This document shows positions 39,615 to 46,362 of a stretch of 64,000 bases of DNA, one piece after another; position 1 is the first letter of the stretch; every line of letters begins with the position of its first letter. A program made the position numbers and the translations under genes. The DNA comes from Candidatus Marinacidobacterales bacterium (GTDB lineage Bacteria; Acidobacteriota; Vicinamibacteria; Marinacidobacterales; DATDRI01). The stretch lies in NCBI GenBank assembly GCA_965226495.1, contig OZ245365.1, positions 1,056,001 to 1,120,000 on the forward strand, given 5' to 3'. The notes under the pieces were generated by a model. That model did no database searches. It saw nothing but the letters and a program-made list of their open reading frames with translations, and was not told the origin of the DNA.

Positions 39615-41689
39615 CCGACGACGGCGGGAAGTCTTGGCGAAGAGTCGAGAACGGCTTGCCCGGCGGTATGCTCGGGAAGATCGGCATCGACATCTATTCG
39701 AGGAATCCCCGTATTCTCTATGCGACGATCGATAACGCCAACTCGCCCGGAGTTTCCGACGACGCCAGGCGGCGCGAGTTCTTCGACGAAAAGCGGGCCA
39801 GTAAGCCGACGGTTGGCCATGCGATCTATCGCTCGGACGACGCCGGAGACTCGTGGCGTCAAGTCAGCCCGCCAGGCGAAAGCATCGGCAATCGGTCCAA
39901 CTACTATGGCCAGATCATCATCGACCCCAATGACGAGAACCACCTTTACGTACTGAGCTCGAGGGTGGATGTGTCTGTGGACGGTGGCAAGACCTGGACC
40001 CATCCGCTTCGTTACGGAGGCGATAATCACGTCCTGTGGATCGATCCGGCGGACTCCCGGCACATGATCATGGGTTATGACTATGGAATGGCGATCACCT
40101 ACGACGCGGGGGCGCGCTGGTACCACCCCGATGAGCTTTCGATGGCGCAGCTTTACGCGGTGGGCGTCGATATGGATTACCCCTATAACGTCTACGGCGG
40201 AACGCAGGACTTCGGCTCCTGGAAAGGGCCGAGCACGAAAAAGGGTCGTTTTCCGATTCGGTTCGAAGATTGGGAGCACATGAACGGAGGGGATGGGTTC
40301 TACAACCAGGTAGATCCAACCGACAGTCGGTGGCTCTACAGCGGCTCTCAGTTCGGGCACATCCAGCGGATCGATCAGAAGACCGGCGTTCGAAAGACGA
40401 TTCTCGGTGACCGTGACTCCGACCAGCGGTTCAATTGGAATACGCCGCTTCTGATCTCGCCGCATAACAGCGACGTCCTATACGTGGGGGCCAACGTTTT
40501 GCTCCGGTCTCCGTTTCGAGGCGAGCGTTGGGAGACAGTGAGTCCCGATCTGACGAAGAGCGACGCTAGCAAGTTCAAGGGTGTTGGTGCGGTGAGCTAC
40601 GGCACCATCACCACCGTCGACGAATCGCCTATTGAACAGGGGGTTCTCTGGGTGGGGACCGACGATGGCAACGTGCAGCTCTCTCGAGACGGCGGTGAAA
40701 CGTGGACGGACCTGAGCGAGAATGTCACCGGCAATCCCGGATACTGGGTGACCCGAATCACCGCCTCTCATCACGACGTGGGAACTGCCTACTTGAGCTA
40801 CACGGGTCTGCGCCGCGACGACTTCCGCTCTTTCGTCTACCGGACTACCGACTTCGGGAAGTCCTGAAGTTCGATTGCCTCCAACTTGCCCCCTGAGTCC
40901 GTCAACGTCATCAAAGAAGATCGAAAGAATCCCAATTTGCTTTTTGTCGGAACCGACAGGGGAGTCTACGCGAGCCTAAATGGGGGTCGGAATTGGGTCC
41001 GCATGACAAACAACCTACCCACCGTGGCGGTTCGTGATCTCGTAATACACCCACGGGAGAATGATCTCGTGGTGGGGACTCACGGCCGGGGATTCTACAT
41101 CACCGACATCTCTCCTCTGCAGGAGCTCACCCAAGAGGTATTGGCGTCCGAAGTGCACTTGTTCGAGATCGAGCCCAAGGTGCAATGGGTCATGCCGAGC
41201 CAGCCGTCGGTGAGCGCTCAGAACTTCGAGGGCGATAACGAGCCTCACGGTGTGGTGATCAACTATTACTTGAAGAAGGAACCCCCGGGCGACGTGTCGA
41301 TCCGGATCTACGATGGGACGCGGCTCATCAATGAGATAAGCGTGTCAGGATCGGTCGGGCTCAACACCGTCGAGTGGGGCATGACTAAGCGAAGACCCCG
41401 AACGTCTGAGGAAATCGGGCGTTGGGACGAGCGGAACGATGAGTCGGCGGAAGAGGAAGAGTTTTTCGATTACTACGACACGGTGGACTTTTACGGCGCT
41501 CCCGACGAAGAGGTGGACAAGTGGGGGCGATCGCTCGAGACGAGGGTTCACGCCGAGGCCGGTATCACCGAGCGCGAGTACGCCTATTTCCGCGTTCCGC
41601 CAGGCGCATACACTATCGAGCTTTTGGTTGGTGGTACAGAGCTGCGCGGCGAGGCGCTCATCTTGCAGGACCACTGGTATGACAAGTGA
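39615..41689 (+). pseudogene. BNR/Asp-box (VPS10-like) beta-propeller protein, 5'-truncated, with in-frame TGA at 40865
   Basis: Asp-boxes SDDAGDSW, SVDGGKTW, SRDGGETW, SLNGGRNW; ORFs 39656..40867 and 40886..41689 are in the same frame. Confidence 0.8.
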
Positions 41690-41693
41690 TATC

Positions 41694-41749
41694 CCCCTCA
41701 CCCGGCCGCCTTTGGCGGCCGACCTCTCCCCGGAAGGGGAGAAGTACAT
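41694..41749. repeat. REP-like double-hairpin repeat of the same family as 6908-7092
   Basis: cccctcacccggccgcctttggcggccgacctctccccggaaggggagaagtaca. Confidence 0.75.
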
Positions 41750-41939
41750 CAACCACACTTTTGAATATGAGTGCAAGGCACTCAACCAACTTGCGTCGCC
41801 CTTCTTTTCCCACTAGGATCGCCTAGAGCCTAACGGCTTTGAATCCTGGCGTTACGAAGACGACAACCTGAATGAATTTACCTAATCGGGGAAATATTCG
41901 GCCGTGCGGCGGTTTGGCCGTTGCTACGAGGGGATTTCC

Positions 41940-44900
41940 ATGAGCCAAAGCGAAACCGAAACCGTTCTAGACCCAATCGAAGAACAGAAGAAGGAGCTCG
42001 AGTGGAAAAGCGCCATCTGCGGAATCTGTCCCGCCGGTTGTTGGGTGGAAGTGGGGCTAGACGGCGAGCAGTTGGTGAACATCAAGCAGGACACCTCTCA
42101 TCCCCTCGGCATGATTTGCCGCCGTGGTCAGCACTCTCCCGAGATCATCTACTCCGAAAATCGCCTCAAATACCCGATGCGGCGGGTGGGCCCAAAAGGC
42201 AGCCATGAGTTTGAGCGCATCACCTGGGACGAAGCCTACGACCTCATCACCAAGAACCTAACCAAAATCAAAGAAGAATCAGGGCCAGAAGCGGTCGCGA
42301 TTTACACCGGTCGCGGCACCTTCGAGTTGTCCCTCTGCGACATGTTCCAGCCTAAAGGGGTTGGAGTGTCCTCCGCCTCGAACGTGCTGTTCCCATTCGG
42401 TTCGCCGAACACAATGGGAGTCGGGGCTCTCTGCTACGTGTCCTTCGCCGTCATCGCTCCCCACGTGACCATGGGACGGATGCTCGTCAACATGTTCACC
42501 GACATGGAAAATGCCGAGATGTTGATAGTGTGGGGGGCAAACCCGGCTACCGATTCTCCTCCCCTCGACATGCACCGACTGGAAGCTGCGGCGAAACGCG
42601 GGGCTGAGATCGTGGTCATCGATCCGCGTAATACCGAGAACCGCAACACGGACCAACGCCAAATGGGTTCCGATCCGACCTGGTACCGACGGCGCTCTCG
42701 CTCTTAGCATGATCGAGGTCATGATCGACGAGGAGCTTTACGACGAGGATTTTGCAGAGAACTGGTGTCATGGGTTCGACGAGCTGAAGACCTACGTACA
42801 GCACTTCCGTCCCGAGGTCGCAGAGTCCATTACCGGTGTTCCGGCGGAGACGATCCGGGAACTGGCGCGACGACTTTGTTACGCGACCGGGGCCTGCCCG
42901 GTGATGTACACCGGACTCGAGTATTCCAACACCGGAATTCAGGCGATTCGTGCCGTGCACACTTTGTTCGCCTTGGCCGGTCAACTGGATGTGCCCGGCG
43001 GCATCGGGCTCGGGATGCTCGACGGCAGTTTCCCCATCAACCGCTCTGCGAATCAAGAAAACCCGGACACCGACCTGGCGGTGGCGCGGGATAAGTTCCC
43101 CCTCTACACGCACTATCGCGAGGAGTCCCACGCTAGCGGGCTTCTGGATTCCGTTTTGAAGGGAGAGCCTTATCGTATTCGAGGCCTGCTGATTCACGGC
43201 GCATCGCTTTTGACTTCTTGGCCGGCGACGCCTACCTGGCGCGAGACTCTTTCCAAGTTGGATTTTGTCGTTTGCATCGACCGCCAGCTCACCGCCGATT
43301 CCGCCTATGCCGACGTCGTTCTGCCTGCGACCACGATGTTCGAGATCGACTCCTACCTCACCTACGGTCCCATCTTCAGGCTGAGGGAAAAAGTAATCGA
43401 GCCGGTCGGGGAGTCCCGAAACGACTATCTGATTATGGCGGAGCTTGCCAAGCGACTTGGCTACGGACATCTTTACCCTCAGACCGAAGAAGAGATGATC
43501 CGCCTTGCCCTAGACGGTTCTGGCTACACGCTCGAGGACGTCAAGGCTCAGGGTGGTTGGGTTAAGATTCCCACTTCGATGATGGAGTACAGGAAATGGG
43601 AGAAAGGGGCTCTACGACCGGACGGGAAGCCGGGCTTCGATACCCCAACCGGTAAGTTCGAGATCTGGTCCACTGTTCTCGAGGACTACGGGTACGAGCC
43701 GCTACCGAAGTACGTTGAGCCCAAAGAAGGACCCATTGCCAGTCCCGACGTGGCGGCGAGTTTCCCCCTCGTTTTCAACTCCGGCGCACGACCCCATACC
43801 GATTTCCGCTCCCAGCATCACGGCGTCGAGGGACTCGCCAAGGACAATCCCGAGCCCACCGTAGAGATCAACCTCGAGGATGCGGAGGAGAGGGGCATCA
43901 AGACCGGCGACCTCGTGGAAGTGCGCTCGCCGAGAGGCGCGGTTCCTTTCCGCGCTCGGGTCACCAAAGACATCGTCAAGGGTGCCGTCGAATGCAATAT
44001 GGGCGGCGGCGGACCCGTAGGACCGAAGGCATGGCAGGAGTGGAACGTCAACGAGCTGACGGACATTGCAAACTACGACGAGATTTCCGGGTTTCCGGTC
44101 TATAAGGCGCTTCTTTGTGACGTGGTTCGGACCGAAGAGGGTACCGAGGCCACGCGACGCACTGCGGTGCGGTCGGGGAGCGTTTGCGAGCCGCTACTGT
44201 TTTCGCCCCACGAAAGGAAAGGGCCGGAGAGGAGAATCTATCTCGACAACAACGCGACCACACGGGTCGCCGATGAAGTGCGCGAAGCCATGCTTCCCTT
44301 CTTGGAAGCCGTCCATGGCAACCCTTCGAGTATCCATGGGGTGGGTCGCGATGCACGGGAGGCCGTCGATAATGCACGTCGGCAAGTGGCCAAGCTCATC
44401 AACACGCGGCCGCGGCGGATCATATTCACGGGCGGGGGATCGGAAGCGGACAATTTGGCGTTCAAAGGGATTGCCTTCGCGCATCAGGACAAAGGCAAGC
44501 ACATCATCACGACGTCGATCGAGCATCCCGCCATTCTCGGAGCCGGCAGCTTCTTGCAGAAGCTCGGTTACGAAGTAACGTACCTGGACGTGGACGAGGA
44601 CGGTTGCCTATCTCCAGAGAAACTGACGAAGGCCATCCGAGACGACACCATCCTGGTCTCCATCATGATGGCCAACAACGAGGTGGGGACCATTCTCCCG
44701 ATCAAGGAGTTGTGTGCTATCGCGCACGATAGGGGCGTTTTGTTCCACACCGACGCGGTTCAGGCGGTTGGCAAAATCAAGGTCGATGTCGAGGACCTCG
44801 GCGTAGACTTGCTCAGCATGTCGGGCCACAAGTTCCACGGACCCAAGGGGATTGGTGTGCTCTACGTCAAGAGCGGCGTCCGACTCGAGCCGCTCATCCA

Positions 44901-45387
44901 CGGTGGCAAACAGGAGAACGGTATCCGGGCAGGGACCGAGAACGTCCCCGCGATCGTGGGCTTGGGCAAGGCGGCAGAGCTAGCGGCTCAGGCCGTCAAG
45001 GACGGCGAGAAACTCAGGGCTCTCAGAGACAAACTGGAGGCTGGAATCAGGAAGCTCGTGCCGAAAGCCAAATTGAACGGCCCTGCCGAAAACCGGCTTC
45101 CCAACACCCTCAACTTGACCTTGCCGGCGCTGCGCGGTGAATCGCTGGTGGTGGCACTCGACCAACACGGGATCTCGCTGTCATCGGGCTCGGCGTGCAA
45201 ATCGGGCTCACCCAAACCGACTCATGTGCTGATGGCTATGGGGCGAACCGAGGAGGAGGCGCACTGCGCGGTAAGGTTGTCTTTATCTCACGACGTGACG
45301 GAGGAAGATATCGGCGAGACGATATCGGCTTTGGAGCACGTGCTCGAGGAGATGGAAACAACCGTCCGGTTCCTCCCCTGCAAGTAG
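41940..45387 (+). CDS. Molybdopterin (bis-MGD) oxidoreductase fused to IscS/NifS-type cysteine desulfurase; one frameshift near 42630-42700
   Basis: CGICPAGC...C 4Fe-4S motif, RLKYPMRR, WGANP, IDPR, ADVVLPATT, TPTGKFE, molydop_binding domain; in-frame IYLDNNATT, GNPSSIH, HTDAVQ, SGHKFHGPKG, RAGTEN, SSGSAC. Confidence 0.88.
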
Positions 45388-45389
45388 AA

Positions 45390-46283
45390 CTACTGAAACA
45401 AAGCCTTGAAGACGTAGCCGGCGACGGCCGGGTTTTCTCTAAACCGCCTCAGAGAGTAGGGATACCACGCGGGGCCGAACGGAACCGCTACCCGAAGTCG
45501 GTGTCCGGCATCTCGAATGATTTGTCGCAAGGGTGCTCCTACTCCGAGCAACATTTGAAACTCGTACTGTGAAGCATCGAGGCCGAAACGGTCGACGATG
45601 CGGAACCCTTCCCACACTAGCCTCTCGTCGTGAGTGGCAATGCCGACGTAGCAGCCCTCGCCCAACAACTCCTCCAGCAACCGCGTGAAGTTGGAACGCA
45701 CAATCTCCTTGTCTTGGTACGCGACATCGTGAGGCTCGATATAGATGCCCTTACATACACGAACGTTCGCCTTCACTTTAGCGAGCCGGCGCGCATCGGC
45801 CACGCTGCGTCTCATATAGGCTTGAAGGACCGCACCCACGTTGTCGAACTCCTCGCGGAGCCGGAAGAAGATGTCGAGCGTATCGTCGGTGCAGCCCGAG
45901 TCCTCCATGTCGATGCGGACGAAATTCGAGTGCTCACGCGCGAAGACAGCCAGGCGGCGGATAGTTTGGTAGCAGAACTCTTTGTCGATCTTGAGCCCGA
46001 GATGCGTCGGCTTGACGTGGATGTTGCTGTCCAGTTTGTCTTGGCCGATCCGGGTAAGAACGTCCTGGTAGTCCTTGGCCGCCGCTTCGGCTTCTTCGCG
46101 ACGCTCCACGAACTCACCGAGCATGCCGCTGGCCGCCATGAAGCCCTCGCTGTTTAATGAACGCACCACCCGTACCTGGTCCTCGAGCGTCTCACCCGCG
46201 ATATAAGAGCGAGCGAAATGTCCGACCAACGGTTTCGGGACCAGGGGAAGGGAAGATGCGATGAGGCGATCGAAGAGGCTCAT
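45390..46283 (-). CDS. Monofunctional proline dehydrogenase
   Basis: YIAGETL, VKPTHLG, RIDMEDS, VLQAYMRR, RVCKGIY.EP, IATHD, EFQMLLGV, VPFG, RRFRENP. Confidence 0.9.
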   Translation of the reverse strand: MSLFDRLIASSLPLVPKPLVGHFARSYIAGETLEDQVRVVRSLNSEGFMAASGMLGEFVERREEAEAAAKDYQDVLTRIGQDKLDSNIHVKPTHLGLKIDKEFCYQTIRRLAVFAREHSNFVRIDMEDSGCTDDTLDIFFRLREEFDNVGAVLQAYMRRSVADARRLAKVKANVRVCKGIYIEPHDVAYQDKEIVRSNFTRLLEELLGEGCYVGIATHDERLVWEGFRIVDRFGLDASQYEFQMLLGVGAPLRQIIRDAGHRLRVAVPFGPAWYPYSLRRFRENPAVAGYVFKALFQ

Positions 46284-46362
46284 GCGTGCGAATGAGAAGT
46301 TAACATAGGGCAAAAGCAAAAAGAAGAGCCCACCGTTTCCGGCGGGCTCTTCGGACTAGAGA
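45894..46362. repeat. Copy A of ~470-bp direct repeat (5' part of proline dehydrogenase plus upstream terminator)
   Basis: Near-identical to 53324-53791 with scattered substitutions and an indel. Confidence 0.9.
46318..46352 (-). terminator. Intrinsic terminator (copy 1 of 3)
   Basis: aagagccc-accgtttccggc-gggctctt hairpin with A-run on plus strand (U-tract on minus). Confidence 0.75.

Follow-up and report, generated by a model that had tools for sequence, protein, structure and literature searches.

What reaction could be carried out by a molybdopterin oxidoreductase whose gene continues in frame into a cysteine desulfurase? This question is raised by a locus in a 64,000-nucleotide stretch of the genome of a Candidatus Marinacidobacterales bacterium, a member of the Acidobacteriota (assembly GCA_965226495.1, contig OZ245365.1, positions 1,056,001 to 1,120,000), called here the window. 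Two open reading frames (ORFs) lie in different frames of its plus strand at 41904–45387: the first occupies 41904–42707 (267 amino acids) and the second 42709–45387 (892 amino acids). We consider it very likely that together they represent one gene belonging to the metallopterin-dependent ergothioneine synthase (MES) family, which in the window is broken by a single extra base. An earlier interpretation of the letters alone (the sequence-only reading) had described the fused protein as an enzyme of unknown reaction. This description is now superseded, since Beliaeva and Seebeck (JACS Au 2022; PMC9516567) have presented the same two-module architecture as MES, an enzyme that transfers sulfur onto N-alpha-trimethylhistidine and makes ergothioneine without oxygen. 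Thus, the function of the fusion has been known since 2022, and the window gene is a further, broken MES. The wider importance of the locus is accordingly small: the unusual fusion is real, and its explanation already exists.

Domain architecture of the fused gene

The MES gene, which lies on the plus strand like all features described in this section, starts at ATG 41940. This start was placed by homology and agrees with the one given in the sequence-only reading. When both ORFs are read through, the gene has 233 + 915 = 1148 codons. Using Pfam models, we found Molybdop_Fe4S4 (1.7e-07) and positions 1–152 of the 353 positions of Molybdopterin (2e-21) in the first ORF. In the second ORF these are followed by positions 196–353 of Molybdopterin (3.3e-12), by Molydop_binding (1.6e-21; approximately 43789–44109) and by positions 1–368 of the 371 positions of Aminotran_5 (3.7e-85), which corresponds to a complete desulfurase domain. 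Among the NCBIfam models, the C-terminal part is best described by NifS TIGR03402 (373 of 379 positions) with 517.8 bits, slightly under the curated cut-off of 530.75 bits of this equivalog for the housekeeping NifS. The complete IscS/NifS domain proposed earlier is borne out by both models. The N-terminal parts gave only sub-threshold NCBIfam matches, to formate dehydrogenase alpha, PhsA and DmsA-type models, and the two pieces scored 103.8 and 162.1 bits against formate dehydrogenase alpha TIGR01591, the cut-off of which is 666.25 bits. By Pfam and NCBIfam, a MopB module and a class-V desulfurase are therefore encoded in one gene, which is the architecture of MES. Their junction lies inside the uninterrupted ORF of 892 amino acids, as had been stated before.

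Codons 1–233, which are still read in the original frame (41940–42638), encode the Fe4S4 cysteines and the predicted Mo/W-ligand cysteine, and they are 94% identical to P0002, a database protein that is 93% identical to the window protein. After the frameshift site (42639–42640), the rest of the MopB module, which binds bis-molybdopterin guanine dinucleotide (bis-MGD), continues in the +1 frame at 42640–44109 according to Pfam. The linker at 44110–44232 (LLCDVVRTEEGT ... ERKGPER, then RIYLDNNA) is about 30–40 residues long; in an alignment of 19 homologues it varies, and its flanks are conserved. The NifS/IscS-type desulfurase module, dependent on pyridoxal phosphate (PLP), occupies 44233–45387 together with the stop codon. 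The whole piece 42640–45384 is 92% identical to P0002. The protein begins with MSQSETETVLDP, as does P0002, and a twin-arginine leader is absent, in agreement with the sequence-only reading. When P0002 was compared with solved MopB chains, the nearest were 2vpw, at 6.8e-68, and the acetylene hydratase 2e7z, at 1.7e-67.

Diagnostic residues of MES

In the MES paper, four homologues were tested: CaMES from Caldithrix abyssi, AbMES, EaMES and hvMES (PMC9516567). These proteins, whose sources are bacteria, an archaeon and the metagenome of a vent, converted trimethylhistidine to ergothioneine in E. coli. The isolated C-terminal module of CaMES is a cysteine desulfurase. Replacement of the metal ligand (C153S), of the PLP lysine (K952A) or of two further cysteines (C1074S and C1135S) each lowered ergothioneine about 2000-fold, and C1097S caused only a two-fold loss. 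Co-expression of desulfurase-dead and metallopterin-dead variants did not restore activity, which indicates that sulfur is transferred within one molecule. Exchange of 34S between ergothioneine and trimethylhistidine persisted in the K952A variant, which shows that the C–S chemistry takes place, reversibly, at the metallopterin site. Acidobacteria are among the carriers in Table S1 of the same paper.

All nine diagnostic residues of CaMES are kept in the window protein at a constant offset of 12–13. The four cysteines of the 4Fe-4S motif, which had been noticed from the letters and placed in a DMSO-reductase-family module, are C27, C30, C34 and C60 (codons 42018, 42027, 42039 and 42117) and correspond to Cys14, Cys17, Cys21 and Cys48 of CaMES. 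The predicted Mo/W ligand is C165 (codon 42432) in GVGALCYVSF, a motif that is identical in the text of CaMES, where the residue is Cys153. In the desulfurase module, the PLP lysine K964 in SGHK (codon 44830) corresponds to Lys952, and the persulfide cysteine C1086 in SGSAC (codon 45196) corresponds to Cys1074. The MES-specific conserved cysteine C1109 in EEAHCAV (codon 45265) is the counterpart of Cys1097. The penultimate cysteine in the terminal FLPCK, C1147 of 1148 (codon 45379), matches Cys1135 of 1136. The motifs GALCY, SGHK, SGSAC and PCK, which hold four of these residues, had been picked out earlier, and each was located. In an alignment of 21 rows with 19 database homologues, the nine residues are complete in 18, and P0110 has arginine at the persulfide position; the equivalents of C1109 and C1147 are present in all 19.

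CaMES itself was not among the fetched loci, in which three short motifs from the supplement gave no match. MES genes were found when 17 genomes from the Caldithrix-like family were searched, but none of them was CaMES. In the supplement (PMC9516567), long runs of CaMES, among them FPFGSPNT.GVGALCYVSFA.IAPHVTMG, are identical by eye to those of the window protein, and CaMES ends with PCR. Judging from CaMES, the intact allele of the window gene would convert trimethylhistidine and cysteine to ergothioneine.

Frameshift within the gene

A frameshift had been suspected at about 42630–42700. The window reads gagaaccgc at 42639/42640, and the homologue protein, DPRNTETATRTNA.W, requires one A less; therefore, one extra A is present at this site (AA in place of a single A). 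The three-frame translation of 42540–42780 gives ...EIVVIDPRNTE in frame 0 and ...TATRTNAKWVPIRPGTDGALALSMIEV in frame +1, and P0002 has DPRNTETATRTNARWIPIRPGTD within a single frame. Past the insertion, the original frame runs to TAG 42705–42707, so that the first product would consist of 233 native and 22 out-of-frame residues. The remainder after the break has neither the Fe4S4 cluster part nor the metal-ligand cysteine.

We then turned to public sequencing runs. Twenty runs from seven studies contain at least half of the words of the stretch, and none of them is recorded as RNA. Four runs, each of a different study (X1, X2, X4 and X5), supplied contigs for a comparison with the window over 3484 bases. 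In X1 (depth 11.3) and X2 (depth 3.65, which is low), one contig each spans all 3484 bases, and in X4 (depth 10.4) two overlapping contigs do so. None of the three differs from the window by a letter or a gap, and all of them carry the extra A. The contig of X5 (depth 7.24) also has no other letters and shows exactly one gap, namely the letter left out at 42639. It follows that both alleles exist. An uninterrupted single polypeptide, as in MES, is thus lacking in the window allele and is encoded by the X5 allele and by a sister species (G020), in which the MES gene is intact with an open frame of 1164 amino acids. The break appears very recent, since an intact allele in another sample is otherwise identical to it in every letter. 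Taken together, the extra A is probably a recent, real and inactivating polymorphism.

The main rival, which we consider unlikely, is that the gene of the organism is intact and that the extra A entered the assembly through an error of sequencing or consensus. Such an error would be in keeping with the genome being one 6.34-Mb contig, which suggests long reads, with the missing letter in X5 and with the split or interrupted MES loci of other metagenome-assembled genomes described below. On the other hand, the same extra A was found in the separately assembled contigs of X1, X2 and X4, which stem from three studies and show no other difference, and the site is A versus AA, not a long homopolymer.

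Internal stops appeared on straight translation of 5 of the 67 full-length MES loci of other genomes (L032, 30; L057, 1; L077, 2; L089, 1; L098, 8), and in L077, L089 and L098 the length of the match cannot be divided by three. It is therefore not unusual for a MES gene to be broken or mis-assembled in metagenome-assembled genomes. In a relative from the same family (G022, a genome 73% complete), the MES gene also lies in two frames (G022:C20:130531-133912; L114, L115). The two pieces match residues 21–537 and 534–1146 and overlap by 11 nt, so this break is elsewhere than that of the window.

By descent, the sequence is a member of MES, and its window allele is predicted to be non-functional. 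The extra A would break the frame after codon 233 and part the Fe4S4 and metal-ligand portion from everything downstream. In the enzyme of the paper, activity requires two intact modules in one chain. If the frameshift is real, no ergothioneine is thus expected from the window allele, as judged by the published C153S and complementation results. One base after TAG 42705–42707 stands ATG 42709, which opens the ORF of 892 amino acids (42705–42711 in all), and upstream of this ATG no evident Shine-Dalgarno-like run was seen. Re-initiation at ATG 42709 could give the 892-residue piece. Its desulfurase module might stay active alone, by analogy with the isolated module of CaMES.

Distribution and phylogeny of MES

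To query protein databases, we used residues 330–680 of the 892-residue ORF, which straddle the junction. Among 8000 scored candidates, 3201 proteins were found at E <= 0.001. All 120 listed proteins combine PF00266 with PF01568, are 71–93% identical to the query and mostly have 1129–1157 amino acids; the query is covered to 100% in 119 of them and to 90% in one. Public names of the MES proteins of about 1140 amino acids are 'IscS subfamily cysteine desulfurase' or 'aminotransferase class V-fold', which indicates that the family is still under-annotated. When prokaryote species were scanned with one genome each, at least 588 of at least 599 pattern matches proved to encode relatives, so MES is spread far more widely than the paper, with its approximately 80 genomes, had shown. 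The junction is spanned in 73 of the 80 best loci, and the other 7 end at a contig edge before it. By record titles, the carriers belong to Acidobacteriota, Gemmatimonadota, Chloroflexota, Calditrichota, KSB1, Aminicenantes, Fidelibacterota, Latescibacterota, Krumholzibacteriia, Planctomycetales, Methylomirabilia and others (more than 10 named phyla). Full-length homologues with the same architecture, which the sequence-only reading had proposed to search for, thus number in the hundreds. The linker, which it had also singled out for a check, is traversed at 44110–44232 by the contigs of all four runs without a differing letter.

A FastTree tree was built from 63 rows, leaving out the 5 loci with internal stops and 13 truncated loci. 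The window gene pairs with L019 (support 100). Both are placed inside a clade of seven rows (support 97) that includes two Dehalococcoidia genes adjoining EgtD, and genes of Calditrichia form a neighboring clade. Of the 63 loci with 1100 nt or more on the downstream side, 13 have EgtD directly next to MES, and this adjacency requires at least four changes on the tree.

Across more than 10 phyla, MES proteins of about 1140 residues keep 70–80% identity over this length, and their grouping in the tree disagrees with the phyla. A Thiobacillus gene stands inside Gemmatimonadota, and genes labeled 'Eubacteriales' stand inside Aminicenantes. This mismatch suggests frequent horizontal transfer or binning errors.

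EgtD, selenoneine genes and oxygen in the host genome

In the MES paper, EgtD is co-encoded in 55 of approximately 80 MES genomes, and MES is stated to occur exclusively in anaerobes (PMC9516567). The genome of the window encodes EgtD (TIGR03438, 369.5 bits with a cut-off of 290.9) about 4 Mb off, at G000 5,046,279-5,047,208. SenA (487.5 bits, cut-off 420) adjoins SenB (389.9 bits, cut-off 300) at G000:C1:2238398-2240618 (L018 8381-10706, minus strand). This SenA gene is also the best EgtB-like gene of the genome; with about 335.8 bits, it falls below the EgtB cut-off of 360 and was rejected as EgtB in favor of selenoneine synthase. With the EgtB model used, no EgtB above the cut-off was found in the genome of the window. 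SenA binds trimethylhistidine, according to the abstract of a structure paper (PMC11237966); hence, EgtD can serve SenA, which makes SenA a second consumer of the EgtD product. The genome of the window thus bears on the coexistence of two routes that consume trimethylhistidine.

We also surveyed 41 genomes of the order, including that of the window (40 without the unpublished G025). EgtD above the cut-off is present in 30 of 41 genomes (29 of 40 without G025), SenA in 25 of 41 (25 of 40) and MES in 3 of 41 (3 of 40). Such a distribution makes MES a sporadic gene in this lineage, and it was probably acquired horizontally. Two COX1-family genes of heme-copper oxidases (478.2 and 278.3 bits) were found in the window's genome. 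SenA-type enzymes need O2. With heme-copper oxidases and SenA/SenB, the host is unlikely to be a strict anaerobe. The genes of aerobic respiration, the selenoneine pathway and the freshly broken MES thus bear on the statement that MES occurs in anaerobes only.

Several of these observations speak against the interpretation of the gene as a MES broken by a real mutation. EgtD does not adjoin MES in the window's genome, and across the order it tracks SenA far more than MES, so that its presence supports a MES function in this organism only weakly. The two COX1 genes and SenA sit uneasily with an enzyme confined to anaerobes. The likeness between the window protein and the CaMES text of the supplement, which extends along the full length, was assessed only by eye. 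For the frameshift, contigs and not reads were compared, the libraries are not on record, and one of the runs is possibly the source of the window itself; a reproducible sequencing artefact at 42639 may thus be involved.

There is a further scenario to which we give only a slim chance: in marine Acidobacteriota that can respire oxygen and make selenoneine by SenA/SenB, the loss of a horizontally acquired MES would be under way at present. Alleles with and without the frameshift, identical in every other letter, would then co-exist across samples, and a second member would be split elsewhere in its gene. In a bolder version, the desulfurase would also take selenocysteine, which would open an O2-independent route to selenoneine from the EgtD product.

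There is also only a slim chance that the protein is a MES-like enzyme with another job, such as sulfuration of a different heterocycle, transfer of selenium from selenocysteine onto trimethylhistidine, or sulfuration of its own cofactor only. The separation of EgtD from MES, which holds for this genome and for 50 of the 63 sufficiently long loci, would fit such a job, as would the selenoneine genes of the host. The authors of the MES paper also allow that related Mo enzymes may act on and sulfurate other heterocycles (PMC9516567). Nevertheless, the family is tight, with 71–93% identity over the junction region among the 120 listed proteins and with short tree branches. Genes adjacent to EgtD occur within the clade of the window gene itself, all diagnostic residues are kept, and homologues as distant as the archaeal one made ergothioneine (PMC9516567).

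A chimeric join of two genes, named in the sequence-only reading as the finding that would overturn the fusion, has a negligible chance: its sole hint is a database protein showing that chimeric contigs exist in public data, while the junction is covered by all 120 listed proteins, by 73 of the 80 best loci in more than 10 named phyla and by the contigs of four runs, and the fusion has been expressed and found active (PMC9516567). The MopB–NifS fusion is genuine, and a chimeric join is excluded. The database protein in question, P0005, is 92% identical and comes from a 4.9-kb contig; its last approximately 75 residues are unrelated, resemble another NifS-type C-terminus and do not have the PCK end, so the contig is probably chimeric. 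It is just as hard to believe in a programmed +1 ribosomal frameshift that would still yield the full-length enzyme. In its favor, the frames overlap in such a way that the full protein is regained by a +1 step at 42639. However, a slippery codon is absent, as re-pairing of GAG on AGA is impossible, neither a stop nor a rare codon marks the site, and a single frame encodes the protein in the intact allele, in the sister species and in every aligned homologue.

Proposed mechanism and comparison with known systems

The following mechanism has been presented for the enzyme of Caldithrix abyssi, with the cycle at the metal as a proposal, and would apply to the intact allele by homology. The C-terminal PLP desulfurase would take the sulfur of L-cysteine as a persulfide on the loop cysteine. 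A relay that requires the penultimate cysteine of the C-terminus would then move the sulfur, within one polypeptide, to the Mo/W-bis-MGD center held by a cysteine ligand. There, Mo(VI)=S would be attacked by the imidazole C2 of N-alpha-trimethylhistidine, the product of EgtD. Ergothioneine would leave, the metal would be left as Mo(IV), and the protein persulfide would re-sulfurate Mo(IV) at every turnover. An electron-transfer partner would not be required by such a cycle.

Self-sulfuration of the Mo/W center, as suggested in the sequence-only reading, is correct in that the desulfurase provides a cysteine-derived persulfide to this center, and it is incorrect as a maturation step, because the transfer recurs at every turnover according to the MES paper (PMC9516567). 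The analogy with the FdhD/IscS-like maturation of formate dehydrogenases fails for the same reason, and the cut-off of TIGR01591 was also missed. The lack of adjacent partner subunits, which had been remarked on, is not puzzling if the Mo(VI)=S to Mo(IV) to persulfide cycle needs no electron partner; the functional partner, EgtD, is encoded elsewhere in the genome.

The window gene resembles CaMES in its two-module chain (1148 codons after read-through versus 1136), in the nine residues at a constant offset and in the end of the protein (PCK versus PCR). It differs in the insertion of 1 nt after codon 233, in EgtD, which is not co-encoded and lies about 4 Mb off, and in the heme-copper oxidases and SenA/SenB of its host.

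ABA3 is a NifS-like domain fused to a domain that binds the molybdenum cofactor (Moco). In the eukaryotic Moco sulfurases (ABA3 of Arabidopsis and human MOCOS) and, among bacteria, in XdhC with a NifS-type protein and in FdhD with IscS, a NifS-like desulfurase gives the terminal sulfido ligand, as in MES. In these systems, however, sulfuration is a one-off maturation after which the cofactor is inserted into another enzyme, whereas in MES it occurs at each turnover and the sulfur exits in the product. The cofactor-binding domains are also different: MOSC or XdhC there and the bis-MGD fold of MopB in MES. A comparison with Moco sulfuration systems is also drawn in the MES paper (PMC9516567).

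Within the MopB fold, acetylene hydratase (2e7z) and the Thermus 'thiosulfate reductase' chain (2vpw) share the N-terminal Fe4S4 motif and the cysteine metal ligand with MES. They have no fused desulfurase and perform acetylene hydration and the reduction of polysulfide or thiosulfate, respectively. The polysulfide and thiosulfate reductases work with partner subunits. CaMES is 27% identical to acetylene hydratase (PMC9516567). Finally, EgtB/Egt1, which are O2-dependent non-heme iron enzymes, and EanB, which is rhodanese-like, share with MES the trimethylhistidine substrate from EgtD and ergothioneine as the end product, in contrast to their folds and chemistry, which are unrelated.

Neighboring genes and paralogues

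The upstream neighbor of MES is a BNR/sortilin-like gene (39656–41689, plus strand). Downstream, a convergent proline dehydrogenase gene (Pro_dh, 4.3e-29) is followed by a DUF3604 gene. The sister species has the same neighbors around its intact MES, with 86.5% nucleotide identity over 39620–46284. These neighbors are uninformative on the function of MES.

The BNR/sortilin-like gene is broken by an in-frame TGA at 40865–40867 (...TTDFGKS*), after which the frame continues to 41689. The Asp-box motif is S-x-D-x-G-x-x-W, and the TGA occupies what we take to be its Trp position. The broken MES thus seems to have another damaged gene as its immediate neighbor.

Both modules of MES have stand-alone relatives in the window's genome. 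For the desulfurase, it is a NifS/IscS gene with 50% identity at G000 2,126,165-2,127,289. A cytoplasmic MopB paralogue of 702 amino acids is encoded at G000:C1:4303113-4305182 (L012 1495-3606, minus strand). It has no desulfurase, scores above no curated family cut-off and adjoins a sulfatase-like gene. Over its whole length it is 33% identical to the metallopterin module of MES, and it carries a cysteine at the metal-ligand position (GHMCYI).

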